From a virus (Duplodnaviria; Caudoviricetes): a stretch of 52,701 bases of DNA. The stretch spans positions 1 through 52,701 of the IMG/VR virus record IMGVR_UViG_3300022562_002170. One strand, 5' to 3'. The notes under the pieces were generated by a model. The model saw only the letters and a list, made by a program, of their open reading frames with translations, ran no database searches and had not been told where the DNA came from. Every line of letters begins with the position of its first letter. Position 1 is the first letter of the stretch. Shown piece by piece: positions 8 to 49,044 of this stretch. Both the position numbers and the translations under genes were made by a program.

Positions 8-1312
8 ATGTGCCAGAAGCTCGGCATCAATGCAAGGGAACTTGCAAAGGTTTTCAACAACGAGAGCAGGTTCGACCCGTCCATTCAGGCCATCAGGGGG
101 AAGCCTCCGCACGTCGTTGCCCAAGGTATCGCGCAGTTCATCAAGAGTACCGCGATCAGGGTCGGTGGCGTGCCCCCGGAACAGTGGGACACATTCAACC
201 AACTCTCCGGGGAGGAGCAGCTCCCCTACATCGAGACCTATCTGAAGAAGGTTGGGATGGCGCGGTACAAGACCGCCGGACAGATGTATGCGTCGCACTT
301 TGGCGGGTACAACCTGCCTGGGTACGGGCGCGGATACATGAGTCGTGAGACTTACGGCTCCCTGCCTCCGGACAAGAAGGCGGCCGTGGAGAAGGCCATC
401 GGCGGTAAGGGTCAGCTGGAGCCGATGTTTAACGCGTATGAGCAGAACAAGCCGGCCGACGGCATATCCGGCGGGCACAAGAAGGGGGTCGTGGACAACA
501 CGGACTTCGCCAGGCTCATGGGGAACGCGTCCCTTCCTGTCAGCATCGACTCTGCGATAGCCCAGGCAGAGTCCCAGATCGCGTCCGGTGCCCAGCCGAC
601 AGAACCGCAGGCCGCCCAGACCGAGGCACAGACCAACGCCAACGAGTCTCCTCCTCAGGCTTTCCTGATGAAGTCCGGGTACGTTACGGACCCGGACGAC
701 AAACTCCGTGACGGGCTCGGGAGGACGGTCCAAGTCGCGGACGAGAACAGGCTTGCCGCGGCCGCGGTGCAGACGGCTTCCCTCCGGAGGCAGATCGACC
801 TGGTTAATCAGACCCCTCCGCTCATCATGCTCATCAACCCAAGCCAGATGAGCCGGAGGTACGAGGCTAGCGCCGACTCGAGCACCAAGGGCAGGTATGG
901 GCATATTGTCCACAACTGGTTGGAGCGGCCCTTCAGCCTCGAGGCCTCTGGTATGACGGCCGGGCAGTACGTGGTGGACGCCGAAGGGTCTGGCGGGCTC
1001 ACGAACACATTCCGCGTCCATTCGCTCAGCTATGCGAACCTCCTGAGCCTCGCGATGATTTACAAGAACAACGGGATCCTGTTCGCCGGCCAGGAATCAG
1101 ACACTGGGATCCCTGTCCTCGCGATGAGCGTCTTCGTTTACTACGACCAGCATGTTTATCTCGGCTCCTTCGATACGTTTTCCGTCGAGGACTCCGCGGA
1201 TAGGCCCCACAACATGGCATACGAGTTCAAGTTCAACGTCAGGTACGACATGCCCCTCCCCGGCGGGTCTCCCGTCATCGACTCCCTCATAGCTGACAGC
1301 ATGGGGTTCTGA
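8..1312 (+). CDS. Lytic transglycosylase (SLT-like) domain fused to a putative baseplate/tube-initiator-like C-terminal domain; probably 5'-truncated
   Basis: N-terminal NNESRFDP (catalytic Glu motif) and QGIAQFIKSTA (G-x-x-Q motif). An Ala/Gln/Thr linker is followed by 'LIMLINPSQM...YLGSFDTFSVEDSADRPHNMAYEFKFNV', typical of tube-like baseplate proteins. The frame is open to the window edge. Confidence 0.65.
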   Translation: MCQKLGINARELAKVFNNESRFDPSIQAIRGKPPHVVAQGIAQFIKSTAIRVGGVPPEQWDTFNQLSGEEQLPYIETYLKKVGMARYKTAGQMYASHFGGYNLPGYGRGYMSRETYGSLPPDKKAAVEKAIGGKGQLEPMFNAYEQNKPADGISGGHKKGVVDNTDFARLMGNASLPVSIDSAIAQAESQIASGAQPTEPQAAQTEAQTNANESPPQAFLMKSGYVTDPDDKLRDGLGRTVQVADENRLAAAAVQTASLRRQIDLVNQTPPLIMLINPSQMSRRYEASADSSTKGRYGHIVHNWLERPFSLEASGMTAGQYVVDAEGSGGLTNTFRVHSLSYANLLSLAMIYKNNGILFAGQESDTGIPVLAMSVFVYYDQHVYLGSFDTFSVEDSADRPHNMAYEFKFNVRYDMPLPGGSPVIDSLIADSMGF

Positions 1313-1313
1313 C

Positions 1314-4300
1314 GTGGCGAGAACCTCGGCCTTCAGGGGGACGTGGCAGCCGAACCGGCGTCCCTACCTCACTCTGACCCCGGACGCCTACGTGTCGATC
1401 CAGGGGGAGACGTCCGTGATAGCCTGCGGGGAGTGCCGCAGGGAGGTTGACGTCAACAGGTACCTGACCGGGATACAGGTGGACACGTCCGTCGAGTCCC
1501 CGCCCGGGTCCGCGACCGTGACCTTGTCCATCCCCGACAACGACATTAATCAGTTCTACGTGGACGGCGAGCTCATCATCATCTCGATGATGGAGATCGA
1601 GATCTACGCCAAGGGATATTTCACCGTCGGCGGGTTCCCCCAGTATTACCGCATCTTCTGGGGTCTCGTCTCTTCCGTGACGAAGAACTGGTCGAACGGG
1701 GTTACCACCGTCAGCCTGAACTGCAAGGACATCCTGCGGTGGTGGGAGATAACGAACGTCATCCTGAACCCGGCCTTTCTCGATACCTCGAAGTCGGGAT
1801 CCGGATATCAGCTTTTCCAGAACAAGTTCGCCGGCGCGAACCCGTACTCCGTCATCATAGCCTTGGCCCGCGAGGCTATGGGTGACTTCTCCATTACCAC
1901 CGGGTCCTTCACCTCATTCCGTCCGGAGGACGGGGCCGAGCGCGGGGTCATTGCTCAGTACGCCAAGGACATCATGGTGTACTGGCAGCTCAAATTCGGG
2001 AATATCTGGAACAGCCTGGTCTTGTATGGGACCAGCGGGCAGGCGTACACGTTCGCCGGCGATCCCGGAAACGTGTCTCCGGTGAAGATAGCGAATGACA
2101 TCTTCAAGGAGGAGGCCGCCCAACTCAACCTGAACCCGGAGACGTCCCTCTTCAAGATTCAGCCACATGAGATCGCCGCGTTCAAGGTAGATGTCTCCAG
2201 GGCCGGTGATGTCGATTTCTTTCAGAACGAGACCCAGAGCAAACTCGCTGTCGCCATCACGGCTAGGGACCAAGCCGGTGGCTACGAGTTCTACTGCGAC
2301 ACGACCGGGGATATCGTCTTCAAGCCCCCGTTCTACAACCTCAACGTCCTTCCGAACAAGCCCGTCAGCTGGATCCAGGACTTCGAGATCATGGATGACT
2401 CCATCACGGAGTCCGAGCAAGAGGTGTACACGCATGTCACGTCCAGCGGGAACGCTTTCGGCGGGGTCACGGACTGGGGCCTGAACGACGACATCACGAC
2501 GCCGCGGACTGGCGTCATCGACTGGCACCTCCTGAAGAGGTACGGATGGAGGCATCTGTCGCTTCAGCTCGAGTGGGCCGGGAATCCGAGGAAGTTGTTC
2601 TACCACCTCCTCGACCATATGGACAAGATAAACGCCCGGCGGCACTCCATGTCGGTCACCATCCCGATGCGTCCGGAGATCCGTATGGGGTTCCCGGTCT
2701 GGATCCCGAAGTATGATGCCTTCTTCTACATACAGGGGATCTCGCACAACTACGCGCCGGGAGGGCAGGCCGTCACGGCCCTCACTCTGATGGCGCGCCG
2801 TCGGAAGTTCGTCGCCCCGAAGAACATTGGCAGAGTCGTCGTCACGGGGTCGAAGACCGTCACGCCCAAGAACCAGAAGACAAAGCAGAGCCAGGCGGTC
2901 GAGGAGGAGACTTTCGCCATCAGCTTCCCGTCGGGTGTCGGTCAGACGTCGAGCTTGACCGATGCTGGACAGGAGGAGCGATATGGGGGCCCCGCGATCC
3001 TCCGGGATCCCAAGACCGGGAAGCTCCTCGGGTTCCCGAACGCCGTCATGGTGTACCGGACGACCCTCAGTGGACAGAAGCTCGCCGAGATTCTCCAGGG
3101 GAGCGGGAGCAAGAAGGGCCACAAGCCGCAAAAGCAGGACAAGAAGAGGCCGGAGGGACCGAACTTCTCCTACGCGAGGACGATCGGGGACGTCTTTACC
3201 CAGCTCCAGAACGACAAGCGCGCGGAGATCATCGATCGTCTGAGGATCCACCGGTATGAAACCGGGATGTCGAATGCCGGCGCCTACGACTATGCGCACG
3301 ACTTCGATGGCCGCTTCAAGGAGTTCTCGGTCATCCCGACGGACAGGATCACCTGGGGGACCGGTACGGAGGATCCCGACGCCGGGACCAAGGCCGCGGA
3401 CGGGGACTCCGTCGGGGCGGAGACCGTCGCGGATGCAAAGGAGAGGAAGGCCCGCATTGACGCCGAGGCCAAGGCCCTGGAGGCTCAGCTCCCTGAGCTC
3501 AGGACGAAGGTAAACGAGACGAACAAGGCCTACAAGCAGGCCCTGAAGGAGCTCCAGCAGCTTAAGCAGGCGAAGGGGAAGGTGAAGACGACGTCCAGCC
3601 TCGAGGGTCAGGCTGATGTCGCCGTTCAGCAGAAGGAAGAGTTGGTGAAGAGCGCGAAGGCTACCTACGACGAGGCCTCTAAGGCATACTCTGACCTTCA
3701 GGCCCAGATCAGGACGACGAAAGCGAACGGCGGGAAGATCAAGAAGCTCGCCTCCTTGAACATTATGATCCGCCCGGTTTCGGATGAGTTCGGATTCGAG
3801 GTGATCGGACATTACCGCTACGGGCGCGGGGCTTACATCGATCGCGGCCAAGTCCAGCTCCCCGATCCGAACACGGTCGATCAGAATCCGAATTATGTGA
3901 ACGAGCTAAACATTCAGTTTGCGGCGCATGGGGGCCTCCTGACGGACCCCGCCGCCCAGAACGCCCCGAACCTTGGTCCTGGATCCCCGAGCTTCGCGCA
4001 GGCCTTCGAGAAGATGCAACCCGAGGATTATATGACCGGCGCCTCCTTCAAGGGGGCGAATTATGTCGACGATCAACACCTGGAGGAGGTCAATCCGACC
4101 AACCAGAACACGTACTCGAACTCTTTCAGGCGCAACTCGGACAACGGGACCGCCGTCTTCGCGGAGGCCGACGCCCTCCGCAGGGCCGTGACCCTTGCGG
4201 AGCTAAAGCCTACGCTGTCCACCGGCCTGGATGCCGCAGGGTTCGAGCGCTGCGCGTGCGAGCTCGGGAGGACCGAGTGGCTGTCAGTCCTACCTCTGTC

Positions 4301-4820
4301 CTTTGTGCAGCAGGTCCTGCGCCCGGTCCAGGTCTCGGCCGGGAACATCGAGGTGAACGCGGCCGAGCTCGAAGCGCAATTTGCGGCCACCGGTGAGATC
4401 CCGGCCGCCCAGGAGACGGTCACGGTCGCCGCTGGGGACGTGTTCAGGCTCGAGGGCGCCGGCGGGTTCTTCAACATCCTGCACGACTACCTCGTACAGA
4501 GGTTCAACAAGGACTACGAGGAGAACAAGTTCCGCGAGGAGTACGCGATCAACGGCGGCATGGACGTCACGGTCCCAGACCCCGGGGAGCAGGACAACGT
4601 CCTCCGTCCGGCGAAGAACTCGCTCTTCGACCGGGCCTCGATGGGGGACCCGGATGCCCTCGGAGCGCTTACGAAGGGTGCGAACTTCAACTTCGGTCTT
4701 ACGAAGAAGGGCCTTCAAGACTTCAAGGAGACGCTGGACGATCCCCAACCGGTCGCGCCGAGGCAGGTCTCCTTCCCGACCCTCGTGAACCCGTCCGGCA
4801 GCGGGACGACCGGTTTCTAA
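1314..4820 (+). CDS. Putative baseplate hub protein (gp27/gpD/VgrG-N-like), 1168 aa, with coiled-coil insertion
   Basis: GTG start 1 nt after the upstream stop. Hub-like motifs 'GIQVDTSVESPPGSATVTL', 'YEFYCDTTGDIVFKPP' and 'TIPMRPEIRMGFPV...FYIQGISHNY'. Lys/Glu/Ala heptad segment at about 3430-3740. Lies just upstream of the spike gene. Confidence 0.65.
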   Translation: MARTSAFRGTWQPNRRPYLTLTPDAYVSIQGETSVIACGECRREVDVNRYLTGIQVDTSVESPPGSATVTLSIPDNDINQFYVDGELIIISMMEIEIYAKGYFTVGGFPQYYRIFWGLVSSVTKNWSNGVTTVSLNCKDILRWWEITNVILNPAFLDTSKSGSGYQLFQNKFAGANPYSVIIALAREAMGDFSITTGSFTSFRPEDGAERGVIAQYAKDIMVYWQLKFGNIWNSLVLYGTSGQAYTFAGDPGNVSPVKIANDIFKEEAAQLNLNPETSLFKIQPHEIAAFKVDVSRAGDVDFFQNETQSKLAVAITARDQAGGYEFYCDTTGDIVFKPPFYNLNVLPNKPVSWIQDFEIMDDSITESEQEVYTHVTSSGNAFGGVTDWGLNDDITTPRTGVIDWHLLKRYGWRHLSLQLEWAGNPRKLFYHLLDHMDKINARRHSMSVTIPMRPEIRMGFPVWIPKYDAFFYIQGISHNYAPGGQAVTALTLMARRRKFVAPKNIGRVVVTGSKTVTPKNQKTKQSQAVEEETFAISFPSGVGQTSSLTDAGQEERYGGPAILRDPKTGKLLGFPNAVMVYRTTLSGQKLAEILQGSGSKKGHKPQKQDKKRPEGPNFSYARTIGDVFTQLQNDKRAEIIDRLRIHRYETGMSNAGAYDYAHDFDGRFKEFSVIPTDRITWGTGTEDPDAGTKAADGDSVGAETVADAKERKARIDAEAKALEAQLPELRTKVNETNKAYKQALKELQQLKQAKGKVKTTSSLEGQADVAVQQKEELVKSAKATYDEASKAYSDLQAQIRTTKANGGKIKKLASLNIMIRPVSDEFGFEVIGHYRYGRGAYIDRGQVQLPDPNTVDQNPNYVNELNIQFAAHGGLLTDPAAQNAPNLGPGSPSFAQAFEKMQPEDYMTGASFKGANYVDDQHLEEVNPTNQNTYSNSFRRNSDNGTAVFAEADALRRAVTLAELKPTLSTGLDAAGFERCACELGRTEWLSVLPLSFVQQVLRPVQVSAGNIEVNAAELEAQFAATGEIPAAQETVTVAAGDVFRLEGAGGFFNILHDYLVQRFNKDYEENKFREEYAINGGMDVTVPDPGEQDNVLRPAKNSLFDRASMGDPDALGALTKGANFNFGLTKKGLQDFKETLDDPQPVAPRQVSFPTLVNPSGSGTTGF

Positions 4821-5198
4821 CTAGAGGTGCTTCAGCATCTCCACGAACTTCGGGTTGCATTTGTCCCGGTCGAGGAGGTATGTGAGCACCTCCTCGACGG
4901 TCCTGCTGGCCGGGGAGACGTAGACCTGGCTATCCAGCTCCCCAGTCGAATAGTCGAGCATGTGCCGGAAATGCATGATCTTCATCGTCAGGACGACATA
5001 GTGGCTCTTGTCCTCCTCGCGCTCCAGGACACACTCCATCCCGGTTTGCTTTCCGAGGAAGTGGATCAGGTTCTTGTCCTTGACCGCGATACTGATCTGC
5101 AAGTTCTGGCCCTCCCTCATGTTCGAGAGGGTCTCCACCTCCAGCCTCGCCTTTTCGATCAGCTTTCCGCTTATGGTCGTGACCTGTATCGCCGGCAT
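4821..5198 (-). CDS. Hypothetical protein, 125 aa (antisense insert in the tail operon)
   Basis: Fills the hub-spike gap exactly, has normal globular composition and a GTAACGT box 6 nt before its ATG. Confidence 0.7.
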   Translation of the reverse strand: MPAIQVTTISGKLIEKARLEVETLSNMREGQNLQISIAVKDKNLIHFLGKQTGMECVLEREEDKSHYVVLTMKIMHFRHMLDYSTGELDSQVYVSPASRTVEEVLTYLLDRDKCNPKFVEMLKHL

Positions 5199-5231
5199 GG
5201 AGTGACGTTACCTTCGAAGTAGGGTTTCACG
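5199..5231. promoter_or_regulatory. 33-bp divergent promoter region with two GTAnnnT (-10-like) boxes
   Basis: GTAGGGT at 5219-5225 (+) is 6 nt before ATG 5232. GTAACGT at 5211-5205 (-) is 6 nt before ATG 5198. Confidence 0.55.
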
Positions 5232-7517: not shown

Positions 7518-8099
7518 ATGCCGCTGGTCCCTCCCGCCATGACGGCACTGCTGACTGGGTACATGGGCGGAGGAGGCATATTCGGCGTCTCGAGTCCCCA
7601 GCTTGCCGCAGCGATATCTAACGGTTTTTGTCAGTACGCGATCAGCTCGGTCGTCGTCAACACCGTTGACGTCGGGTCTGCGGGGACCGGGACCGGGGTC
7701 GGTTCCGGGATTACGCTCGCTACTCCCGTCCTCGTCGCTTCCCTGACCGCGACTTTCGAGGGAGCGCAGATCCGGGGCCCCCTCCGTCAGTCCCTCATTG
7801 TGGCCATCTCGAAGGCCGTGTCGGACACCCTCAGGGTCGCCCTGATGAACACCGTGAACGCGGGGGTCGGCGCCGGGACCGGGAAGGCCACGCTCGTCCC
7901 GAACTCGGCCGTCTCCGTTCCCCTCATGGTCACAAACTTCTTCGGCCTGGCCTTGGTCGGCGTCTCGAGCCCCGTCCTGGCCTCAGCGGTAGCGCGCGGG
8001 ATAGATCAGGCCCTCCCCTCGGCCTCTGGCGCCGTCGTAATAACTGGGGCCTCCGGCTCCAGCCCCGGGACTGGAACCGGGGTGGGGAAGCTAATTTAG
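7518..8099 (+). CDS. Gly/Ala/Val-rich structural protein with internal duplication, 193 aa
   Basis: GVSSPQLAAAISNGF...GTGVG is repeated as GVSSPVLASAVARGI...GTGVG. Starts 3 nt after the spike stop. Confidence 0.7.
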   Translation: MPLVPPAMTALLTGYMGGGGIFGVSSPQLAAAISNGFCQYAISSVVVNTVDVGSAGTGTGVGSGITLATPVLVASLTATFEGAQIRGPLRQSLIVAISKAVSDTLRVALMNTVNAGVGAGTGKATLVPNSAVSVPLMVTNFFGLALVGVSSPVLASAVARGIDQALPSASGAVVITGASGSSPGTGTGVGKLI

Positions 8100-13360: not shown

Positions 13361-13512
13361 GGCCGAAGTGGTCTCACGGTCAGGATCTGAACTTTGAGAA
13401 CGTGCGTGGCTTCCTCAACGTCATGAAGGAGGGCGTCGAGAAGTCCATAGCGGAGTGTGAGGACCTGTTGAAGAAGAAGAGGGCTGAACTGAGAAGGATG
13501 GGGGGAGGATAG
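13228..13512 (+). CDS. Small coiled-coil protein; start uncertain (94 aa if ATG 13228, overlapping the upstream gene by 133 nt)
   Basis: The C-terminal half (KWSHGQDLNFENVRGFLNVMKEGVEKSIAECEDLLKKKRAELRR) fills the 13361-13521 gap. GAGGT lies 4 nt before ATG 13228. Confidence 0.55.
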   Translation: MDRPEDKQEGRDAGTAGAGRDQEGGRPPEDRGGPTEASGGGDHVGPKWSHGQDLNFENVRGFLNVMKEGVEKSIAECEDLLKKKRAELRRMGGG

Positions 13513-13521
13513 CGGCGCCAG

Positions 13522-39248: not shown

Positions 39249-39894
39249 ATTCCTCGTCTCTCTTTCTGACGGCAAAATCAAGAGCACGCACGATTTTCCG
39301 ATGGACTTCTCCATCGCCGGCCATTACGTGATGGACATCCCGTCCGACCTGCAGGTAAAGGCCCAGACAGACGTTGTTGCGGACCTCGAGGCCGCGAAGA
39401 TCGCGGCCTTCAAGGGGAAGCATCCTGGCCTTGCGACCTCCCTTAACGACGAGGTCCTGGCCAGCCCGAACGTGGACGCGGCCGAGTCGTCGCGCTTCAC
39501 GCTCGGTCCGTACAAGAGGACGATTCTCTTCCCGGCCGGCGGGCAGATCGTGACCGCGGCCATGGCGGTCGGAATTGCGGCCACGACGGTCTTCGCCCAC
39601 TGGCACGGTTTCACCCTATACTCGGAGCCGGCAGATTACCCGGCCGCCGGTGCCCCTCCTCCGGACCGCCTCCTGTACAACTACGACACCGTCGCGGTGG
39701 CCTTTCAGGCGTTCGACCCGGCCACCTTCACGGTGGAGATCAGGGACTCGACGAACACCTCGACCCTCGCCACCCTGACGCCGGACGTAGAGCAGGCCTT
39801 CGCGTTCGGGCCCGGCAACATCCGGCTTCGTGTCACGAACAACGACCCGGACAAGTCGTACCACCTATCGGACTGGATCCTGCTCCTCGGCTGA
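39241..39894 (+). CDS. Hypothetical structural protein, 217 aa
   Basis: 8-nt overlap with the upstream gene, with GGAGG upstream. Confidence 0.75.
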   Translation: MSKFLVSLSDGKIKSTHDFPMDFSIAGHYVMDIPSDLQVKAQTDVVADLEAAKIAAFKGKHPGLATSLNDEVLASPNVDAAESSRFTLGPYKRTILFPAGGQIVTAAMAVGIAATTVFAHWHGFTLYSEPADYPAAGAPPPDRLLYNYDTVAVAFQAFDPATFTVEIRDSTNTSTLATLTPDVEQAFAFGPGNIRLRVTNNDPDKSYHLSDWILLLG

Positions 39895-43000: not shown

Positions 43001-44685
43001 GAGACCCGACCTTCGTCCTCAACAAGGATGTCATCGACTTCAAGAAGGCGCCGGCGGGCACGACTTGGGACAACTCGGAGTTCCTCGTCGAGTGCACCGT
43101 GTTCGGCGTCGACCGTGGATGGCTTCAGACGAACGGGCGCCTCCTGGTCGCCAGGACGAGCGGCGGCGGATCCCTGCCCCTGGCTATCGACACCTTCACG
43201 GCGACGAGCGATGGCGTCGTTGGCGTGATCACCCCCGCCCCGCTCTCGCTCAACTCTGCGAACAACGAGCTCACGTTCTACTACAGCCGTCAGCCGTACC
43301 AGGGCGACGTGTTCGGGAGCCAAAGTGCGTTTTCGGACGATCCGCAGCGACTCGGCCCCCTCACTGTGTCCGAGGCGACCAGTATCGCTACGAATCAACT
43401 CGGCCCGGTCGAGAGCCTCACGCTCCCGAACAAGCGGGGGTACGAAGTCCTCACGGCGATGAACTTCATCACGTCGATGGGGTCCGGGCGCCTGTCCGGG
43501 TCGAATCCGATCCCGCTCCTCAATACGGCGGAGGCCCCAGACCAAGTCGAGGACTTTGCCGGGACCATCGTAGACCTGAACCGCAGGTTCTCGCTGAACA
43601 GGGTCGGGTACGAGGACTGGTCGACTCCGAAGTTCCCGGTCGTGACGGCATCGCTTGCGTCCAGGCCGGAGATCAAGAGGGACGCCCTGTCGGAGGTGTT
43701 CGACCGGGACGTCAACCCAGAGTTCGCAGGGTCCGTCAGCACGCTCCCGCTCGGGAAGTATTTCCGGGACAAGGACTTTGCCGGAAAGACTCTGTATCAG
43801 CAGCGCAGCTCGAGCAATGTAGGCGCCATCGCCATCGGGACGATGGTCTTCCCTCCGTATCAGGCCCCAACCAACCCGACCCCGCCCGGGTCCTCCACCT
43901 GGGAGGGCACGGAGTTCGTCTGCGGACAGGCGAGCGGGACGTCCGGCGTAGGCGGGGAGAAGATGGTGCTCGTGGACGGGACCTCGAGCTTCTCCAGCGT
44001 CGGCGTCTTCAAGACGACCCGCGGCGGCGCCGCGTGGTCCGTCTCCCCGCCGTGGCCCGGCGGCGCCATCGCCTCCCGCATGCCGAAAGCCCGCCCGAAC
44101 TCGGAGGTCGGGTCGATCCTTGTGGGAACCGCCTATCTCGTCCGATCCCAGCCGGAGTCCATCAGCTCCGTCGAGGTCCATCCGGGCCACGAACTCCAGA
44201 TGGTGATTGTCACCAGAGCAGTTCCGTCCTACTTCCGGGACACGGACATCCTTCACTCGGCGAGCGGGACCGGGGAAGGCTTCACGGCCGTCGATCGGTT
44301 CAGGGTCTGGGGGCGCCCGCTCGAGAAGCGGCGCGGGGACGTGGACACAGTGAGCCCGCCCCTGAACGATCGTCCGCTGTTCGTCAACGACATTTACGAC
44401 GATCCGATTTTCTATGGATCTAGCGACATCAACCTCACCTCGCTGAAGCAGGAGACCCTCCCGATCACATCGAACGGTCAGACTGCCTTCACACTGAGCT
44501 CGAGGCCCCTGGATCCGACGACGGTCATGATGTTCGTCAACGGCGTCAAGCTCAAGTACGGGACGGATTACATCGTCGGCGGAACAACAGACCAAGATCT
44601 CACTCACCTCTCGATCCCTGCGCCGAGTTCGAACCCACCCCTGAAGACGACCGACGTGCTCGAAGTTTGGTACGCCCTGCTCTGA
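40039..44685 (+). CDS. Giant tail/baseplate structural protein, paralog B, 1548 aa
   Basis: 'VVFQAGKPPLDSELN' N-terminus and motifs shared with 36136-38748. C-terminal 'GQTAFTL...FVNG...GTDY' beta module. Confidence 0.8.
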   Translation: MPNSLGSGVSRVIDGRDKQFAIVVFQAGKPPLDSELNLLALAELESRAEEVRSRVPSGWLMDELNPRHDFSTNPAWSNHLYFGRQAAGELRNVPWAVVNGWVVPVAGTRTGQPPLSPNDTVTWNKIELNPPGTSTGGNRADFVFLEVWLQRVDVDPAPPGIAPGKPQRGFLYRFGNVESGFSYLQDELVDPDLNYETTKRVQIQYRIRVVPGINIAQYPEGFDPTVVFAQGALTSPSSVGFANMREALGDPGLWRAGTGDPATFGTVDGYVYAIPMFAVFRRNGAGFSDVGNLAGAFNRNSSATLREDTLVYSSSVLLPADISETDVQFTLTSISGTVLEGMTSFGEAYFRVDDEIVRVNNVTQTGPTSFVVTFDRGQLQTTIREHLADTELIPYTVRPDGLFADQIARTDILDMRHGVADKFDYEAILKTGLTELMKGNLRTVWKRYGSTNSAGPVVLYGDRITDGSIFVGGLSRLDAPNGNRRSWSDAVMTERYEAPVTVPSNAAALNSELVFAVNPYVVSVTWEAGGTGHGPGSRLYGSVPWWYNGDVLRLKLSSFQIGLPAGDADQVRFVLPSEDEDAVLIRFEGMTTDPNGGVPLSTTVRSATNTNGLTSTGNRIMKDGQGISVALDSLTGDLLITFDGDTDGTRLKEFDDAMSAFGAPTADQTNNTRMHIQFAVVVGAGRGASHKPDYVHTVHYRGNATNSSRIMQRPGLSDRSRMIPTYVGDSPYVQTGRNRDLATTSEVMIDPGSRTVFVQPYRNVLVPPLLARDGSKLNWTDGGSYQGAMPTLDPPGTATVHTTVDPLNLFYVGVQARFVEVPFNYLPRPGLHHVPIVPVTTTRFPSGINFFMMSKEGPFGATDTSDWNRSLVSYPSTAGYYVVTPVTGETYGTGTLPSMFGRKFQSTQIRSVDGGPFEGIEFPPFIMPARITGVYLRDTSGAAPYPTVPTASPFNTDRVYVGGVGTDVNLLRDDFDGPTFLIEVDINGDPTFVLNKDVIDFKKAPAGTTWDNSEFLVECTVFGVDRGWLQTNGRLLVARTSGGGSLPLAIDTFTATSDGVVGVITPAPLSLNSANNELTFYYSRQPYQGDVFGSQSAFSDDPQRLGPLTVSEATSIATNQLGPVESLTLPNKRGYEVLTAMNFITSMGSGRLSGSNPIPLLNTAEAPDQVEDFAGTIVDLNRRFSLNRVGYEDWSTPKFPVVTASLASRPEIKRDALSEVFDRDVNPEFAGSVSTLPLGKYFRDKDFAGKTLYQQRSSSNVGAIAIGTMVFPPYQAPTNPTPPGSSTWEGTEFVCGQASGTSGVGGEKMVLVDGTSSFSSVGVFKTTRGGAAWSVSPPWPGGAIASRMPKARPNSEVGSILVGTAYLVRSQPESISSVEVHPGHELQMVIVTRAVPSYFRDTDILHSASGTGEGFTAVDRFRVWGRPLEKRRGDVDTVSPPLNDRPLFVNDIYDDPIFYGSSDINLTSLKQETLPITSNGQTAFTLSSRPLDPTTVMMFVNGVKLKYGTDYIVGGTTDQDLTHLSIPAPSSNPPLKTTDVLEVWYALL

Positions 44686-44694
44686 CGGAGAGAC

Positions 44695-47600
44695 ATGACA
44701 AGGCCCCGCTCACAGCAGATCCTAGACCTTCAGACAAGGTTCTCGAGGCTCCAGTACACGCCGCTCCCCGGGGCGACCCGGGACAGGATCGCCCTCGGAA
44801 CCGTCCACTCAGCCTCCGTCACGGCGGTAGAGGGCGGCGCTGACGAGTCGACCCCGGCCTACGTCACGAGCACCGCGACGCCTCCGTATACGATCCTCGC
44901 TGGTGACGCCATCACGGTCACGGTGGACGCAGGCATCGCGACCACCGTGACATTTGCCAGCACGGACACGACCGCCTCTCGTGTCGCCGCCAGGATCAAC
45001 ACCACCGTCGGTTCCACAGTCGCGTTCGCCGACGCCGGAATCCTGAGCATCAGAGGGTCGACCGTCGGATCAACCGGGCAGGTCATCCTCGCGGACTTCG
45101 TCGCGGGCACCCTCACCAAGCTCGGTCTCGTCGCGGGTACGTACAATGGCGTCGACGCTCCGAACAGGGGCATCGTGACCGTGTCCTTGGACTTGCTCGG
45201 GGGGACAGCCCTTCTGAAGACGCTGGACGGGCAAGATATCCTGACCGACACATCCGCCTCGATCCTTATCGGCGACGGCTTTCTTCCTCCCGTAAGGGTT
45301 CTCGACGTCCCTGGTGGTGTCCCGATGCACGCGCGGGTCACGGCCGACGCGACATGGCTGTACCTCGATTATTATGCCCGGATGCCGACGCGCGCCGAGG
45401 TCGAGACCTTCAACAGTGACCTGGCCTCCCTCGACGGGACTGACACCGTTACCTTCACTGTCGACGACCCGGAGTACGGATTCAACGCGGTCATCGTCGC
45501 GACGTTCCCATCCGGCCCCCTCCTGACGAGAGATCAAGTCGTCACCAGGATCAACGACCTCTGGTCCAACGCCCTCACCATTTCCGGATCCGGCGCATCT
45601 CATGTCCAGGGGACCATCAGTCAGCCTTTCACGTTCAACGGGGTTGCCTCCTCGATCGACATTGCGGTGGATGGCGGCGCGTTCACGTCCGTCGACCTCA
45701 CCGGAGCGGTGACCGTCGCTGACGTCGTCGCTCTCATCAACGGCGCGGTCGCTGGCGTCACCGCATCCCCCGTCTCGCTGACGAATGGGATCTTCCTAGC
45801 GATCAGGAGCAACAATACAGACGGGACGACGTCTTCCCTCGAGATCAGGCCGACCGGCGGGTTCTCGGATGCATTGCAGGCCCTCGGACTCACTCCGGGC
45901 CTGTACAAAGGTTACTACCTCTGTCAACCGTCCGGCCCCTCGGAAATCAAATTCTTTGGCGTTGGGCGGGGATCGCAGGCCACCATTACGGTTGCCTCCG
46001 GAAATCCGACAACTCTCACGAGGCTTGGACTTCCCGCCGGTGTGTATGGGGGGCTCGACGAGGGGGAGCAACTTGTCAGCTTCCCGGCCATGGCAGCGGA
46101 CATTGCCCTGGTCGAGCCGGTGATCGTTCTGTTCCCGGAGGTCATGGACTTCGGGGAGGTACCCGTCCAGGCTGAGTCCACGGTCGCGAAGTTCCTGAAC
46201 CGATCAAACAGCGACGTCCGGATCCAGTCGGTGAAGCTGTACTCGATTGATCAGTTCCGGCTCGATGGCTCGGGGCTCAATGCTGCGGGCCATACGGTTT
46301 CCCTCGGGCCGGACGGTCTTCTTCCATTGACCGTTACGGCGCAGGTCAGGACGGAATACGAGAATTTCTTCAAGAAGTTCATTCGAGGTGACTTCTCCGC
46401 CAGGACCGTCATCGCGCTGGTCGCGAACAATATCGAAACCGGCGGCGTCGATGGAAACACGACAGACGTCTCGGACACCTTCACGGTCGACATCGACCCG
46501 ACTGGAGGTTGGGCCGGCAGTCCCCGATATTTCAAGGTCCAATTCGGGAGGGACGCGACCGCGTATCTGCCGTTTCAAGTCCACTCCTTCTTCCCTCTCA
46601 TCGACGGTGTGAAGTGGTTCGTCGAGGCCCAGGACGATGCTGGAGACCTTGCCGCCTTCGCGAACACGACTGGCGCCATGCGCCTGTACGACCTGAACAT
46701 GGCGACGGCTGGGACCGCCACCACAGGAAAGAAGATCATCCCGGTCACTTCGTCGACGGTCACGCAGGGTGACGACACCCTCCGGATCTTCGGGAAGCGT
46801 GAGGGGAACCTCGAGGCCGTCACACTCTTCCGTCAGATCAACGCGAAGTGGGTGACGACCGTCGGCGACGGGACGGTTTCGTTCGGCGACTTCAACGGGG
46901 TGAACGCAATCCAGCAGGCGCTTACGTTCTGGAATGCATACGTCGGAGCGGCGGACTCGACCGTCCGCATCCAGGTTAAGAAGGGGAATTACACGATCTC
47001 GGCCGCGAATGGTCTGATCGACGTGCCCGCGGACATGCACCTCATCCTCGAAGGTGAAGGGTGGGATGCGTCCATCATCACGCTCACGGACGGGACGAAC
47101 CCGGCTGTCCGGGCAAACTCGAACTGCAAGCTCGAGCTCCGTGACCTGCGCCTCGTCGGATCCGGGTTTGACCTCAGGGTCCAGGTCAAAACGACGTCTC
47201 GCCTTGCCGCCTCCGACGTCAAGGCCTGGAGGGCTCATTTTGAGTTCGACGACGGATACGCCGGCCAATTCGAGCGCTGTTCCATCCTTGCGAACAGTAC
47301 CACCTCTCCTCTCGTCTCCATTCTCGCCGGGGACGGGATCCAGAAGGACGGGTACACTTTCTTCGATTGTGACCTAACAAGTGGGGACAACCTACCCGTT
47401 CTGAAGGTGGCCTCCAGTATCGGAGGATACACGGGCACTGGGAGGATTCTGTTCTGTGACTGCAGGATTCGTCTCGGAAGCACTACCGTCGATGCAAACA
47501 ACAACCTCGTCGGAAACTGCGGGGTCGTGGATCTCGATCCGAACGGTTACAACTCCTTCGGTGGCCTCGAGGGCGCGTACATCGACCACCTGGAGTACAG

Positions 47601-49044
47601 GGATTGTGAGGTCACGGCAAACACAACTGCCGGGGCGGTGAGCGTCCTGATCCACCTCATTCCCATCGCCAACGGTGGAGCGACCACCGCGACCCCGTTC
47701 GTCACAACCGACAGTTCGCTCAGGGTGGACAGGTTCGTCATCGCCGGTGGTAAGTGGATCGCCCCGAGGTCCAATACGACCGTGAATCCCTTCACGGTCG
47801 GGCTGTCATGGACCGATGAGACCTTCCCTGAGGCGAACCTCAATTCCGGGAGGGTTGAAATCCGAGATGTGGTCATCGGGTTCGATCAGGCTGGGACGGC
47901 CGGCGTAAACCACGGGTACCCGACGCAGGACTTGGGCTCCTTCTTCACTACGACGGAGTTCGGCGGTGCGCGTCCCGCGACCGCGATTTGGGGTGCCATT
48001 GCTATCGCGGCGAACTATCTGTTCATGCGGGGAGTCACCCTCGTCGGAATGAGTCAACTCGGGGAGTCCGGAGATCTCTTCCTGAAGTGTGACCGGATGA
48101 TGGATGTCGACGGAATCTTCCTCGAAGACTACAAGTTGTCCGGTCCGCTCACAGCTCCAACGGACAGGGTCCGCGTTAGGACAGGGAATTACTCTGCGGG
48201 CGACCTCAGGGGGAACTTCAGCATCCGAAACGTCTTCATGCGCGGGTCTGACGCTTTGGCCGGATCCTGGGGTACGAATCTCTTTAGTGTCGAGCCGAAC
48301 TCCAGTGGTGCGAGCACAAGTCAGACCTCCCTCGAGGTGTCCGGTGTTCGGATCATGGGCTTTACGGTCGTCGGTGTCCCATCCGCGACAGTCGGATTCC
48401 GGTATGTGAACGCTCTCTTCGGGTCCCTGTATACTGGGAGTGCAGGTAGTTTCGACAGATTTTATGTCTCGAAGCTGCAAATCCGGGATTGCCTCACAGG
48501 GATCCAGGCGCTCCTCACGAATTCGGTGTTCGGAACGTGGTCTATCACGGACAGTGAGGTCTCCTTCTGTACAAACGGTGTGTTTCTGTCGAGCTCGGCC
48601 GAGATCGGGGATTTCACCTTCTGTAGGAACAAGGTCCACGCCAACACGACATCCGGTGTCTACGTGCAGGTTGGAGATTGGATCACAACGGACGAGTTTG
48701 CACCGTGCACCATCGTGGCAAACGACAACGTCATTAGAAACAACCCGAACGCATCCGGCGTTCAGATGCAGGTGTTTGCATCCGCCGTGGCCGGAAATCA
48801 CCTCCCGAGGGGATCCGTCATCGGCAATTCCTTCGGTGGGGGGAGCTCCACTGAAGGAGATTTCAAGGTTAACCAGATCTCTGCTGGGGTGTCGAGTGCT
48901 CTTACGAGTCCGGCCAACCCTGGGCCGCCGAACCAAACCTTGCGCGGAGTTCAGACCGGACATTCTTTGGCCGACGCGAACACGCTGCTTTATCAGAATA
49001 ACTTCAGCATGTACAACAACCAGGGGTTCCTGGTAACTCCGTAG
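44695..49044 (+). CDS. Tailspike / receptor-binding protein with right-handed beta-helix (pectate-lyase-like), 1449 aa
   Basis: 'GDFNGVNAIQQAL...VRIQVKKGNYTI...LILEGEG' is the classic beta-helix cap. Asn/Cys-ladder repeats (CRNKVHAN, NDNVIRNN, VIGNSF) follow. Confidence 0.75.
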   Translation: MTRPRSQQILDLQTRFSRLQYTPLPGATRDRIALGTVHSASVTAVEGGADESTPAYVTSTATPPYTILAGDAITVTVDAGIATTVTFASTDTTASRVAARINTTVGSTVAFADAGILSIRGSTVGSTGQVILADFVAGTLTKLGLVAGTYNGVDAPNRGIVTVSLDLLGGTALLKTLDGQDILTDTSASILIGDGFLPPVRVLDVPGGVPMHARVTADATWLYLDYYARMPTRAEVETFNSDLASLDGTDTVTFTVDDPEYGFNAVIVATFPSGPLLTRDQVVTRINDLWSNALTISGSGASHVQGTISQPFTFNGVASSIDIAVDGGAFTSVDLTGAVTVADVVALINGAVAGVTASPVSLTNGIFLAIRSNNTDGTTSSLEIRPTGGFSDALQALGLTPGLYKGYYLCQPSGPSEIKFFGVGRGSQATITVASGNPTTLTRLGLPAGVYGGLDEGEQLVSFPAMAADIALVEPVIVLFPEVMDFGEVPVQAESTVAKFLNRSNSDVRIQSVKLYSIDQFRLDGSGLNAAGHTVSLGPDGLLPLTVTAQVRTEYENFFKKFIRGDFSARTVIALVANNIETGGVDGNTTDVSDTFTVDIDPTGGWAGSPRYFKVQFGRDATAYLPFQVHSFFPLIDGVKWFVEAQDDAGDLAAFANTTGAMRLYDLNMATAGTATTGKKIIPVTSSTVTQGDDTLRIFGKREGNLEAVTLFRQINAKWVTTVGDGTVSFGDFNGVNAIQQALTFWNAYVGAADSTVRIQVKKGNYTISAANGLIDVPADMHLILEGEGWDASIITLTDGTNPAVRANSNCKLELRDLRLVGSGFDLRVQVKTTSRLAASDVKAWRAHFEFDDGYAGQFERCSILANSTTSPLVSILAGDGIQKDGYTFFDCDLTSGDNLPVLKVASSIGGYTGTGRILFCDCRIRLGSTTVDANNNLVGNCGVVDLDPNGYNSFGGLEGAYIDHLEYRDCEVTANTTAGAVSVLIHLIPIANGGATTATPFVTTDSSLRVDRFVIAGGKWIAPRSNTTVNPFTVGLSWTDETFPEANLNSGRVEIRDVVIGFDQAGTAGVNHGYPTQDLGSFFTTTEFGGARPATAIWGAIAIAANYLFMRGVTLVGMSQLGESGDLFLKCDRMMDVDGIFLEDYKLSGPLTAPTDRVRVRTGNYSAGDLRGNFSIRNVFMRGSDALAGSWGTNLFSVEPNSSGASTSQTSLEVSGVRIMGFTVVGVPSATVGFRYVNALFGSLYTGSAGSFDRFYVSKLQIRDCLTGIQALLTNSVFGTWSITDSEVSFCTNGVFLSSSAEIGDFTFCRNKVHANTTSGVYVQVGDWITTDEFAPCTIVANDNVIRNNPNASGVQMQVFASAVAGNHLPRGSVIGNSFGGGSSTEGDFKVNQISAGVSSALTSPANPGPPNQTLRGVQTGHSLADANTLLYQNNFSMYNNQGFLVTP

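Follow-up and report, generated by a model that had tools for sequence, protein, structure and literature searches.

What apparatus is encoded by a block of unusually large genes on an uncultured viral contig, and does it belong to a phage or to a contractile injection system of another kind? The window analyzed here, i.e. the whole stretch of DNA under study, is 52.7 kb long and constitutes an entire viral contig (CheckV completeness 12%). Its positions 8-49044 form one co-directional plus-strand block of 19 large ORFs, accompanied by two small conserved genes (Table 1). An earlier note, made from the sequence alone, had read the block as the oversized contractile baseplate and fibre module of an uncharacterized jumbo phage, probably of myxobacteria. 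Our analysis indicates that the block very probably encodes the baseplate and the host-recognition fibres of an uncultured megaphage with a contractile tail; judging from its relatives, the complete genome of this phage probably measures about 430-440 kb.

Layout of the block

All 19 large genes have homologues in related viral contigs, and their order is conserved except for one inverted gene in a single relative (G005), which argues that they are not chance ORFs. In the five module genes measured, the GC content at the third codon position is 0.81-0.87, against an overall 0.63 for the window. As the earlier note had counted, seven products exceed 1100 aa (1168, 1745, 1164, 1383, 1874, 1548 and 1449 aa). 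The first gene is cut at its 5' end by the contig boundary and lacks ~146 N-terminal residues relative to its 551-aa homologue in the relative G001, while g08, previously listed as 16303-17778, has its true start at 16600 and a product of 392 aa. Both small conserved genes had been overlooked in the first reading: s1, with a GC content by codon position of 0.54/0.31/0.83 that agrees with the minus strand, is found at the same place in G001-G005 (35-46% identity by tblastn), and s2 has syntenic tblastn matches in G001, G002, G003 and G004. Downstream of the block, two long minus-strand ORFs (50340-51149 and 51119-51961) were rejected as shadows of plus-strand genes (50502-51113 and 51110-51799, respectively).

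Table 1. Genes of the window with their coordinates and assignments
Gene	Positions	Strand	Assignment
g01	8-1312	+	5'-truncated putative tail-associated lysin; SLT/lysozyme-like N-terminal and conserved C-terminal domain
g02	1314-4820	+	1168 aa, conserved tail protein; its position makes it a candidate for the baseplate hub
s1	4821-5198	-	Conserved 125-aa gene
g03	5232-7514	+	Predicted central membrane-piercing spike (gpV/gp5/VgrG type)
g04	7518-8099	+	193 aa, Gly/Ala-rich, nearly uncharged, three internal repeats; candidate spike-tip cap
g05	8123-13360	+	1745-aa conserved structural protein
g06	13522-15858	+	778 aa; hydrophobic/helical N- and C-terminal segments, FN3-like motif
g07	15887-16603	+	238-aa highly charged conserved protein; putative baseplate component
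g08	16600-17778	+	gp25-like sheath initiator (residues ~229-356)
g09	18017-21511	+	1164-aa gp6/gpJ-type baseplate wedge ('triplex') protein
g10	21518-22342	+	274 aa, directly after gpJ; candidate gp7/gpI-type wedge adaptor
g11	22370-26521	+	1383 aa; collagen-like fibre carrying two lectin-type domains (concanavalin/laminin-G)
g12	26526-29021	+	831-aa fibre/baseplate-periphery protein; Ig-like domain, repeats in common with g13
g13	29024-34648	+	1874 aa, the module's largest product; fibre-like and rich in repeats
s2	34664-35035	+	Conserved 123-aa gene
g14	35060-35722	+	220-aa virion structural protein (phrog_5417, E 9.6e-21)
g15	36136-38748	+	870-aa fibre/tailspike paralogue; N-terminal attachment domain in common with g18
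g16	38748-39248	+	166 aa, short Gly-Pro tract; putative accessory fibre protein
g17	39241-39894	+	217-aa conserved protein; possible fibre assembly/adaptor protein
g18	40039-44685	+	1548-aa fibre/tailspike paralogue, strongly conserved
g19	44695-49044	+	1449-aa fast-evolving distal protein; candidate receptor-binding determinant
g20	49083-50339	+	Secreted lipoprotein rich in Cys (42 of 418 residues); accessory, outside the virion core
SNF2	52192-52701	+	N-terminus of SNF2-family helicase, cut by contig end (PF00176, E 3.4e-9)

Components of the baseplate

Of the core parts of a contractile baseplate, three could be verified: the spike (g03), the gp25-like protein (g08) and the gp6/gpJ-type wedge protein (g09). 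For g03, an AF2 model of moderate confidence (63 sequences, mean pLDDT 68.4) suggests an N-terminal OB-fold, extra middle domains and a C-terminal Gly-rich triple beta-helix. When 48,161 chains were searched unfiltered with the model, P2 gpV came first (3qr8; Z 8.6, rmsd 7.2, 125 aligned), followed by the Mu spike (9ki1_V; Z 8.1, rmsd 3.3, 79 aligned), and residues 542-656 of the model superimpose on a beta-helix fragment of T4 gp5 (6p20_C; Z 7.3, rmsd 2.0, 108/109 aligned). Foldseek recovers the spikes of phi92 (gp138), PhiTE, Anabaena, Algoriphagus and PVC with probabilities of 0.94-1.00, and BFVD yields nine matches at E<=1e-3, with gp5/Vgr OB-fold proteins among the weaker named ones. Since generic OB-folds, e.g. 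those of proteasome ATPases and IF1, equal the phage spikes at Z 7-8 over the N-terminus, the spike assignment draws on the combination with the beta-helix and on gene position. By analogy to its family, g03 would trimerize into a needle in which an OB-fold collar is combined with a gp5-type beta-helix. The adjacent g04 (15% Gly, 13.5% Ala, 3.6% K+R and 2.1% D+E) displays its three repeats by eye in a six-sequence alignment, and none of the six family members matches a Pfam family at E<=0.1. A complex test of g04 with three copies of g03 residues 560-760 scored 0.58 against 0.00 for the best control, a weak hint that it may cap the spike.

In g08, the gp25-like domain is preceded by a ~220-aa beta-rich extension of the flagellin/FliD/sheath outer-domain type. 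Its AF2 model (74 sequences, mean pLDDT 81.6) was matched by VIA-align to the equivalents from PVC (9qgl_9A; Z 8.9, rmsd 2.5, 103 aligned), KP1 (9f4a_AA; Z 8.9), Afp (6j0n_D; Z 8.6), pyocin R2 (6u5b_a; Z 8.6, 95/99 aligned) and T4 (gp25, 5iw9_B; Z 7.5); in all, at least 12 different contractile systems are matched at Z 6.4-8.9, with the small target chains covered almost entirely. Over residues 55-177 the model resembles flagellin, FliD and the outer domains of sheath proteins (Z 7.6-9.3), and the homologue in LR745208 hits the Pfam Sheath_initiator family (E 6e-6, below the cut-off). The predicted fold thus bears out the gp25-like gene proposed earlier. The wedge protein g09 contains a Pfam Baseplate_J domain in residues 441-599 (E 1.3e-6, 28.3 bits versus a cut-off of 21.1), and a profile of 73 sequences recovers diffocin TRI-2 (E 2.1e-15), a phi812 baseplate component (5.8e-13), the phiCD508 Baseplate J protein (1.4e-8) and Mu gp47 (5.6e-4). 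It is indeed oversized, being about three times as long as the solved J-type proteins that it matches (348-652 aa), and is 60-68% identical across seven relatives. Great length is common in its family: clustered at 50% identity, this yields 203 clusters with E<=1e-30, mostly of 1000-1250 aa, and 117 of the best 150 cluster representatives have at least 1000 aa. Judged from these sequences, the large gpJ-like protein is a hallmark of a big lineage and not of one contig.

In LR745208, a segment homologous to g10 (30% identity, E 7e-14) stands at the N-terminal end of a protein of 1763 aa, encoded directly after gpJ, in which it is fused with a g13-like segment. Phage_Mu_Gp48 was reached at E 0.063 in one of the seven g10 family members and hhalign to Mu gp48 gave a probability of 0.7%. 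Thus, g08, g09 and probably g10 would make up the core responsible for anchoring and triggering the sheath, a role indicated by fold and family for the first two and by position and the fusion in a relative for g10.

The remaining proteins of this region are characterized chiefly by their conservation. The truncated g01 aligns to residues 147-526 of its G001 homologue; its Pfam SLT match (E 6.1e-4, 19.8 bits) lies below the cut-off of 21.3, and that of the G001 homologue lies above it (25.5 bits). The lysozyme part of the latter matches phrog_196 'baseplate hub' (E 1.3e-34), a family matched in one of five g01 relatives scanned, and the C-terminal domain of the homologue in G002, another relative, matches gp255 'virion structural protein' of phage Tunturi_5 (E 2e-12). 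The peptidoglycan-cutting domain of g01 would allow local digestion of the cell wall. The g02 protein has homologues in all five relatives covering the site (49-58% identity); its N-terminal ~500 aa resemble Tunturi_5 gp254 'tail protein' (24.5% identity, E 3e-20) and LR745208 (29.7%, E 1e-67), and residues ~695-840 give weak matches of coiled-coil type. No match emerged from a PDB sequence search with g02, and hhalign to the Mu gp44 hub returned a probability of 0.2%; by position it would be the hub. Full-length homologues of g05 occur in all six relatives covering the site (42-51% identity). Pfam (E<=0.01) and NCBIfam (E<=0.05) gave no family for it; among the PHROGs it weakly matches one of unknown function, and in LR745208 it has one weak match (24.5% identity over 30% of the query). 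The g06 protein is possibly tape-measure-like or an internal tail protein: two of seven family members have weak PHROG tape-measure matches (E 0.0017-0.036), a PDB sequence search gave nothing below E 0.5, and its Atlas scores are at most 0.79, in a range (<0.9) that provides leads only (a third of shuffled proteins score as high as 0.8). Homologues of g07 are present in all seven relatives (51-64% identity) and family searches gave nothing better than E 0.017. Together with g02, these three proteins would be conserved structural components.

Of the canonical gene order claimed in the earlier note, the spike, the gp25-like and gpJ-like proteins and the collagen/lectin fibre (see below) stand, while the tube initiator, the hub and the gpI-like protein were confirmed by no test. 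Neither a hub, a tube initiator nor a gp7-like subunit was detected by any method tried.

The predicted fibre region

Downstream of g10 lie products with fibre-like features. The first is g11, which matches the Pfam families Collagen (E 1.8e-71, five stretches) and Laminin_G_3 (E 4.1e-43, two stretches) and PHROG tail-fibre families 6320, 819 and 5073 (E 1e-139 to 1e-114); its homologues in four relatives vary in length (516-917 aa). The next two genes share repeats: those in residues 290-414 of g12, a protein with a Pfam Big_5 match (E 2e-7) and homologues in five relatives (35-42% identity), match five regions of g13. The latter contains nine copies, in three clusters, of the motif L-x-N-[DE]-[LIV]-[RK]-x-x-[YF]-x-x-H, and its first ~1540-1730 residues are conserved in relatives, whose proteins extend to 1997-2591 aa. 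The small g14 is 33% identical to Tunturi_5 gp222 'virion structural protein' and 43% to LR745208. Residues 14-315 of g15 and 3-310 of g18 are 33% identical (E 1.5e-28), and the N-termini of both resemble the Tunturi_5 'tail fiber protein' gp247 (28.6% identity, E 1.8e-19 for g15); g18 is 63-68% identical over its full length in G001-G003 and matches phrog_1101 'tail protein' (E 5.2e-7). Between them, the last 96 residues of g16 resemble the C-terminal end of a protein of 441 aa in G002, and g17 has homologues in G001, G002 and G003 (33-46% identity) with no match in family searches. The distal g19, with 13 Cys and one ~100-aa domain in common with g13 (39% identity), is only 28-30% identical to its positional homologues, as against 63-68% for its neighbours. 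Thus, g11-g19 would constitute the peripheral fibres, namely one collagen/lectin fibre, repeat-rich giants and two paralogues with a common attachment domain, with g19 as the likeliest receptor binder.

For nine of the 19 large proteins (g05, g06, g07, g10, g12, g13, g16, g17 and g19) the annotation derives only from conservation, generic domains and position, and some of them may not be tail parts. One might limit the baseplate to the first ~22 kb (g01-g10) and regard some of g12, g13, g18 and g19 as other virion or non-virion proteins of the same late operon; head decoration, whiskers and injected proteins are among the roles that could be proposed for these giants. The lack of a PDB sequence match or Pfam family for g13, g18 and g19 would fit this, as would a weak PHROG 'head fiber' match of g12 (E 5e-4) and the g14 homologue in Tunturi_5, which adjoins the portal gene outside the tail block. 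Yet in every relative the downstream genes lie close together and run in the same direction as those of the wedge. Moreover, the N-terminal domain common to g15 and g18 resembles both a protein annotated as a tail fibre in Tunturi_5 and a tail family of the PHROGs, and LR745208 couples a g13-like segment to the g10-like wedge adaptor. We therefore consider such a restricted baseplate unlikely and retain the reading of a combined baseplate and fibre module.

Viral identity, host and comparison with known tails

The 19 large module genes and the SNF2 gene are collinear with positions 248,204->190,149 of G002, and the module likewise with G001, G003, G004, L002 and L003, as far as those contigs extend, and with G005 save its inverted gene. 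G001 (426,960 bp) and G002 (436,316 bp) have direct terminal repeats and are 100% complete by CheckV. Among the genes of G002 are those for a major head protein (phrog_2522, E 6.7e-47), a portal (E 1.5e-25), a large terminase (E 6.2e-26) and a head protease, and it also has a sigma factor, clamp loader, primase, ligase, RNR, 49 tRNAs and a tmRNA. Because the window is collinear with these complete genomes, its virus is, as far as sequence comparison can tell, a megaphage and neither an eCIS nor a tailocin, in keeping with the jumbo phage of the earlier note.

An eCIS or tailocin on a bacterial chromosome would share gp25-, gp6- and spike-type proteins with the block, several of the best structural matches are indeed eCIS parts (PVC, Afp, AlgoCIS and Anabaena CIS), and the window itself contains no head genes. 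Against this stand the terminal-repeat-bounded genomes with capsid, portal and terminase in the 436-kb one; moreover, a scan for the g08 family in one genome per species (185,579) found a single locus, on a 9,997-bp MAG contig, and no eCIS hallmark family appears among the Pfam matches of the window's proteins, leaving a chromosomal origin exceedingly improbable. The window lacks sheath and tube genes, and searches of the relatives led to no firm identification: PF04984 had no match in five of their records and PF06841 none in three, and PF17482 matched only the C-terminus of a 1684-aa G003 protein (27.1 and 21.8 bits in two scans, cut-off 26.9). In G002, a 1130-aa ORF two genes upstream of the g01 homologue is tape-measure-like in composition. 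Judged from the relatives, the tape measure of the megaphage would thus lie just upstream of the window and the sheath elsewhere in the genome.

The Cys-rich lipoprotein and SNF2 helicase noted earlier in the flank are both present, the latter with full-length homologues (697-734 aa) at the same place in G001-G003. The g20 product has a signal peptide with an L-C-V-A-C motif (lipobox read by eye) and only seven HMMER matches in 5.8 billion proteins; G002 has a positional analogue (324 aa, 29 Cys) and G001 and G003 have none. From this lipoprotein and the high GC a Myxococcota host had been deduced, which we regard as possible but doubtful. The window's GC of 63% would fit, the sole named HMMER match is a Polyangia MAG protein, and in the ESM Atlas the four feature-search matches shown (of 30) and eight of ten structure matches are clusters with Myxococcota as the commonest phylum. 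However, all these Atlas scores (0.75-0.84) are below the 0.9 bar, with TM <=0.26 by query, the Polyangia match (E 1.7e-4) spans 13% of the query, and a scan of a genome collection, which finds close relatives only, found no relative. As a similar lipoprotein is found at this position in G002, where GC is 48% in the module region and 50% genome-wide, it may be a lineage gene and not a recent host acquisition. Since module GC spans 36-66% across the relatives examined while gpJ remains 60-68% identical, high GC is no host marker in this lineage. Finally, the sole MAG in which a relative occurs bears the label Methylobacter, and Tunturi_5, a distant relative and the only one found in culture, infects Acidobacteriota.

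Tunturi_5 is described as a myovirus with a 167-nm contractile tail, observed extended and contracted (PMC11924767). It has in common with the module the order TMP, lytic tail protein, gp255, gp254, ..., baseplate protein, wedge protein, baseplate protein, and its wedge protein has 1239 aa compared with 1164 aa in g09. In contrast to the compact P2/Mu order, the spike here precedes four genes (g04-g07) before the gp25-like gene, so that the arrangement is not strictly that of these phages. The core parts of the module are of the usual baseplate kind, but two to eight times larger.

Gene content and phage origin of the module

The 52,701-base window has a GC content of 63% and holds 19 large open reading frames (g01 to g19 in window order; see the table), all on the plus strand and separated by gaps of a few to about 400 bases. 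GC at the third codon position is 0.81-0.87 in the five genes measured, high values of this kind being the usual mark of real genes in GC-rich DNA. The seven proteins of more than 1100 aa that the earlier note had counted are all present (1168, 1745, 1164, 1383, 1874, 1548 and 1449 aa), and its gene calls needed adjustment at several points. The first gene exists as called but is cut by the contig end, about 146 N-terminal residues being absent relative to its 551-aa homologue in the complete related genome G001; likewise, the reading frame called for the gp25-like gene g08 is real, but its true start lies further downstream and its product has 392 aa. Two small conserved genes had been overlooked, one of which, between g02 and the spike gene, is the sole antisense gene of the 49-kb block. 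The long minus-strand reading frames after position 50340 proved to be shadows of two conserved plus-strand genes.

Coordinates of the module, of features within the window and of related features in other viral contigs
Feature	Record	Position	Strand	Remark
Baseplate and fibre module (g01-g19)	Window	8-49044	+	19 large genes
Small antisense gene, 125 aa	Window	4821-5198	-	Kept at the same spot in G001-G005, 35-46% identity
g08, gp25-like	Window	16303-17778 as called	+	True start 16600
g12, repeat protein	Window	26526-29021	+	
g13, repeat protein	Window	29024-34648	+	
g20, Cys-rich lipoprotein	Window	49083-50339		418 aa
Stretch collinear with g01-g19 and the SNF2 gene	G002	248,204->190,149		
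tRNA block	G002 (L017-L018)	about 97-115 kb		44 of 49 tRNA genes
Two adjacent tRNAs, anticodon UCA	G002 (L019)	19122-19296 (about 139.1 kb)		ARAGORN 'SeC'
tmRNA	G002 (L020)	6433-6807		Tag ANDNGALRIAA
Cys-rich lipoprotein, 324 aa	G002 (L023)	11065-12039	-	29 Cys
Homologue of the candidate giant sheath, 1557 aa	G002 (L029)	2277-6950		59-65% identity
Volactin-like protein, 349 aa	G002 (L029)	9537-10586		PF25216, E 4.1e-70
Candidate giant sheath, 1684 aa	G003 (L063)	9077-14131 (G003 85,077-90,131)	-	
Inverted g01 homologue	G005 (L055)	12928-14535		Between g02 and g03 homologues

When 24 reading frames of the window were scanned against Pfam, PHROGs and NCBIfam, Pfam matched five and PHROGs nine at E<=0.01, the latter mostly with weak hits or families of unknown function, and NCBIfam gave no useful match at E<=0.05 beyond collagen and SNF2. 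About nine conserved proteins of the module are without a known family. A tRNA scan found no tRNA genes in the window.

The window corresponds to one whole public viral record, to which CheckV assigns a completeness of 12%, implying a genome of roughly 440 kb. Scanning viral contigs with the gpJ-like protein (g09) recovered seven loci of 60-68% identity, two of them on records of 426,960 bp (G001) and 436,316 bp (G002) that have direct terminal repeats and an estimated completeness of 100%. The SNF2 gene at the window end and the 19 large genes of the module are all collinear with G002; within the reach of their contigs, G001, G003, G004, L002 and L003 have the same gene order, and G005 deviates from it by a single inverted gene. 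The latter is the homologue of g01, which in G005 lies next to the antisense gene and in the other relatives is found upstream of g02 on the same strand. In G002, head and packaging functions are represented by a major head protein (phrog_2522, E 6.7e-47), head protease, portal (E 1.5e-25) and large terminase (E 6.2e-26); sigma factor, clamp loader, primase, NAD ligase and ribonucleotide reductase are encoded as well, and the genome has a tmRNA and 49 tRNA genes. Most of the tRNA genes form a single block; a separate pair with the anticodon UCA are possible TGA readers. The same genome also encodes a match to Volactin, an actin-like Pfam family.

A contractile module could also belong to an eCIS or a tailocin, for which a chromosomal site and the lack of capsid and packaging genes would be expected. 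What was found is the reverse: the collinear genomes end in terminal repeats, G002 (the one scanned) carries capsid, portal and terminase genes, and a scan for the g08 family across one genome per species (185,579 species) yielded a single locus. That locus, with a g08 homologue of 63% identity, lies on a 9,997-bp contig (DATBQC010000904.1) of a metagenome-assembled genome (MAG) labelled Methylobacter; the contig most likely represents a piece of a phage genome from this lineage, misbinned or else offering a faint host hint for that relative. We therefore reject the eCIS or tailocin reading, and the earlier note's preference for a phage is upheld by the terminal-repeat-bounded relatives and the head and packaging genes of G002. 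A genome of more than 200 kb with such genes is found through the collinear relatives and not in the window itself. Neither full-length matches to a well-described phage family nor chromosomal flanks devoid of head genes, the two outcomes that the earlier note had named as counting against it, were encountered. The block is genuine and encodes the baseplate and fibres of a megaphage lineage not yet described.

The baseplate core and its neighbours

The first two genes sit where a tube initiator or lysin and a hub belong, a putative assignment made by position. In g01 an SLT/lysozyme-type domain is weak in the window and clear in the G001 homologue (phrog_196, E 1.3e-34), and a conserved C-terminal domain matches gp255 of Tunturi_5, a cultured Acidobacteriota myovirus, and the N-terminal ~500 aa of g02 match its gp254 'tail protein'. 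Alignment by hhalign of the g01 family to Mu gp43 and of the g02 family to Mu gp44 gave uninformative probabilities of 0.1% and 0.2%, each from shallow six-sequence profiles. A coiled-coil segment and a Pfam TMP_4 match (E 0.039) in one relative had made g02 a candidate tape measure; this was dropped because a 1130-aa Ala/Gly/Lys-rich reading frame of tape-measure-like composition, two genes upstream of the g01 homologue in G002, matches the position of the annotated tape measure of Tunturi_5. Its place, together with the Tunturi_5 gene order, puts the tape measure just outside the window.

Neither sheath nor tube genes are present in the window, and the Pfam sheath (PF04984) and tube (PF06841) families were found in none of five and none of three records of relatives, respectively. 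A 1684-aa protein of G003 has a match to PF17482 (Phage_sheath_1C) in its last ~90 residues, scoring 27.1 bits in one scan and 21.8 in another against a cut-off of 26.9; its 1557-aa homologue in G002 shows no Phage_sheath_1C match. The G003 protein is a candidate giant tail sheath which, if real, would be more than twice the size of the 490-504-aa phage sheath chains that g08 matched.

The spike assignment of g03 comes from a model folded from 63 sequences (mean pLDDT 68.4). When 48,161 representative chains were searched independently of Foldseek, P2 gpV (Z 8.6, rmsd 7.2, 125 aligned) ranked first and the Mu spike (Z 8.1, rmsd 3.3, 79 aligned) second, and residues 542-656 superpose on the T4 gp5 beta-helix fragment (Z 7.3, rmsd 2.0, 108 of 109 aligned); Foldseek itself matches the spikes of phi92, PhiTE, Anabaena CIS, AlgoCIS and PVC with probabilities of 0.94-1.00. 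Since generic OB-folds tie with phage spikes at Z 7-8, the call rests on the combination of OB-fold, beta-helix and position. With that caveat, and at a mean pLDDT of 68, the modelled fold identifies g03 as the central spike, predicted to combine an OB-fold with a trimeric beta-helix.

The g04 gene starts three bases after that of the spike, an order like that of gp5 and gp5.4 in T4. PAAR tips such as phiKZ gp163.1 and PVC Pvc10 sit on gp5-type beta-helices (PDB 6p20, 6p22), and the beta-helix of g03 matches the beta-helix chains of those entries. When compared with these tips, the three internal repeats of g04 would suit a protein that caps a trimer, whereas its Gly/Ala-rich, nearly uncharged composition sets it apart, and no Pfam family, PAAR included, was matched at E<=0.1 in any of six family members. 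A complex prediction with three copies of g03 residues 560-760 and one copy of g04 scored 0.58 (0.58, 0.60 and 0.57 in the separate runs) against 0.00 for the best of three controls, with at least 94% of contacts agreeing between runs and a partner pLDDT of at least 76. Of 157 solved complexes, 116 attain the mark for such scores, as do two of 215 mismatched pairs, and scores of 0.60 or less comprise only 18 of those 157 solved complexes plus both mismatches that passed. The verdict of the predictor is 'weak support', and g04 is a lead as a candidate spike-tip cap.

Three further proteins follow before g08. Both g05 (1745 aa) and g07 (238 aa) are conserved, and g06 (778 aa), whose ends are helical, contains an FN3-like motif, with weak tape-measure matches in two of seven members; the best ESM Atlas score of g06 was 0.79, with no structure there. 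Among 50,697 phage records, tblastn found one weak match to g05 and none to g06.

The g08 model was built from 74 sequences (the window protein and 73 of the 120 listed among 203 matches) and has a mean pLDDT of 81.6. Its residues ~229-356 can be superposed on the gp25-type sheath initiators from PVC, KP1, Afp, pyocin R2, cyanophage A-1(L), diffocin, AlgoCIS, Anabaena CIS, T4, Pam3 and PhiTE at Z 6.4-8.9 over 95-112 residues, with rmsd mostly of 2.2-3.7 (5.2 for T4 gp25), and the match spans nearly the whole chain of the smaller targets, e.g. 95 of 99 pyocin residues. By the fold of this model, g08 is assigned as a gp25-like sheath initiator, and its homologue in LR745208, an uncultured phage record, has a sub-threshold match to Pfam Sheath_initiator (E 6e-6). 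A further beta-rich domain at residues 55-177 resembles flagellin, FliD and some phage sheath outer domains (Z 7.6-9.3). Profiles of the g02, g06, g08 and g10 families found no match below E 0.3 among PDB sequences, and the failure with g08 shows that profiles of such depth lack the power for this test.

For g09, Pfam Baseplate_J (PF04865) matches residues 441-599 at 28.3 bits, above the cut-off of 21.1. A family profile of 73 sequences (the window protein and 72 of the best 150 representatives) matches solved J-type 'triplex' proteins, namely diffocin TRI-2 (E 2.1e-15), a phi812 baseplate component (5.8e-13), phiCD508 gp65 (1.4e-8) and Mu gp47 (5.6e-4); these are 348-378 aa long, and the matched J-type chains range up to 652 aa. 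Profile similarity accordingly assigns g09 as a gp6/gpJ-type wedge protein. The gene directly after it, g10, corresponds in LR745208 to the N-terminal end of a protein of 1763 aa in which a g13-like part is present too; by position and fusion this recalls, suggestively, a long gp7-type subunit. Pfam Phage_Mu_Gp48 appears at E 0.063 in one of seven g10 members, and hhalign against Mu gp48 gave an uninformative probability of 0.7% with profiles of only six to seven sequences.

Taken together, these observations lead to a reading that we regard as doubtful, namely that the baseplate of this lineage breaks with the classical plan at three connected points. The sheath initiator may keep a sheath- or flagellin-like outer domain, making the first 'sheath-like' ring part of the baseplate; the spike cap may be the new, almost uncharged repeat protein g04 and not a PAAR protein; and four conserved proteins of no known family may be inserted between spike and wedge. 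The relatives may, in addition, pair such a baseplate with a sheath subunit of about 1600 aa. If true, this three-way departure would define a distinct architectural class of contractile tail tip.

Fibres, host and spread of the lineage

A collagen-like fibre, g11, carries two Laminin_G_3 lectin-type domains. Repeats are common to g12 and g13; in the latter the motif L-x-N-[DE]-[LIV]-[RK]-x-x-[YF]-x-x-H occurs in nine copies in three clusters, related repeats occur in g12, and no family was matched by the motif or the repeats of either protein. The paralogues g15 and g18 have in common an N-terminal domain of ~310 aa (33% identity) that also heads the annotated Tunturi_5 fibre gp247. Whereas g18 is highly conserved (63-68% identity), the adjoining g19 shares no more than 28-30% identity with its positional homologues. 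Fast divergence beside a conserved neighbour is the pattern expected of a receptor-binding protein, and g19 is likely, judging from this sequence pattern, to be a host-range determinant. A phmmer search of g13, g18 and g19 against PDB gave no matches at E<=0.1.

High GC and the Cys-rich lipoprotein g20 had been taken as pointers to a host among the Myxococcota. In favour of that reading, g20 has 42 Cys residues and resembles Myxococcota Cys-rich proteins, at Atlas scores of 0.75-0.84 that lie below the reliability bar of the tool, and the only named one of its seven HMMER matches is a Polyangia MAG protein (E 1.7e-4, 13% of the query). In the genome collection, 77 pattern matches to g20 yielded no confirmed one and no close relative. 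Both pointers are unsafe host guides here: module GC is 38% in G001, 48% in G002, 66% in G003, 61% in G004, 40% in G005 and, in the short contigs L002 and L003, 36% and 43%, and the 48%-GC G002 has a lipoprotein with a Gly-rich linker at the same place after the last fibre gene. A Myxococcota host is, on this evidence, unlikely. Across these seven contigs the gpJ-like protein remains 60-68% identical, the closest relatives of the window's copy (68% identity) being on the contigs of 36% and 43% GC. The g20 position is occupied by a 1464-aa protein in G001 and by a 120-aa reading frame without Cys in G003.

The lineage is widespread. The g08 and g03 families comprise 203 and 191 clusters at 90% identity, respectively, on contigs of up to 444,958 bp, with source names reading only 'hypothetical protein' and one member on the MAG labelled Methylobacter. 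At 50% identity, the gpJ family numbers 570 representatives that match with E<=1e-3, 203 of them with E<=1e-30; among the best 150, 117 are at least 1000 aa long and the median is 1125 aa, making the giant gpJ a trait of the lineage. To our knowledge, most information on huge phages comes from metagenomes, and hardly any of it concerns their attachment to cells. For this lineage, with about 200 protein clusters per core gene, the module provides an annotated map of the adsorption apparatus that singles out a conserved core of spike, gp25-like and gp6-like proteins and offers a handful of conserved giant proteins of no known fold as structure targets, and is of use chiefly for structural and host-range work on huge phages. 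Titles and the opening parts of abstracts retrieved from the literature (huge phage, soil, baseplate, Myxococcota) hold nothing on this lineage; the retrieved passages of PMC7162821 make no mention of Myxococcota or tail fibres, and its supplements might give a clade name.

Comparison with known contractile systems

Among the 50,697 phage records, gpJ matches only LR745208.1 and Tunturi_5 (PP885688), the latter being the only cultured phage there to match gpJ and g02. According to the passages seen of PMC11924767, Tunturi_5 is a 308.7-kb jumbo myovirus of Acidobacteriota with an observed 167-nm contractile tail and a singleton in its authors' gene-sharing network. Its gene order is similar: a chaperone is followed by the tape measure (1106 aa), a lytic tail protein, gp255 (resembling the g01 C-terminus), gp254 (resembling the N-terminus of g02) and a 'tail fiber' of 739 aa, and beyond gp254 come a baseplate protein of small size, a wedge protein of 1239 aa and a second baseplate protein; besides the gp247 fibre, its gp222 resembles g14. 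It differs in that its gpJ is 28% identical over 44% of the query and its genome about 130 kb smaller, and two stretches of it (73 of 309 kb) contain no BLAST-level homologues of g05, g06, g07, g08, g10, g12, g13 or g19. LR745208.1 (uncultured, 485,034 bp, unannotated; no paper naming it was found in the literature) has a gpJ of 35% identity over 95% of the query, with the g08 homologue directly before it, and homologues of g02, g10, g14 and g15/g18. Its distance from the window far exceeds that of the IMG/VR relatives, and its g10-like and g13-like parts are fused.

The classical core comprises gp5/gp25/gp6/gp7 in T4, gp45/gp46/gp47/gp48 in Mu and gpV/gpW/gpJ/gpI in P2. In hhalign comparisons of shallow profiles with Mu gp48, gp44 and gp43, the third wedge subunit, hub and tube initiator were not recognisable in the window. 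As in these phages, spike, gp25-like and gp6/J-like proteins are present, and the gp25-like, J-like and next genes are adjacent in that order; unlike in them, four extra genes, one encoding 1745 aa, lie between the spike and gp25-like genes. The core of the module is canonical and its proportions unusual, the core proteins being two to eight times the usual size: the spike has 760 aa against 157-228 aa for the matched phage spike chains, the gp25-like protein 392 aa against 99-212 aa, and the J-type protein 1164 aa against 348-652 aa.
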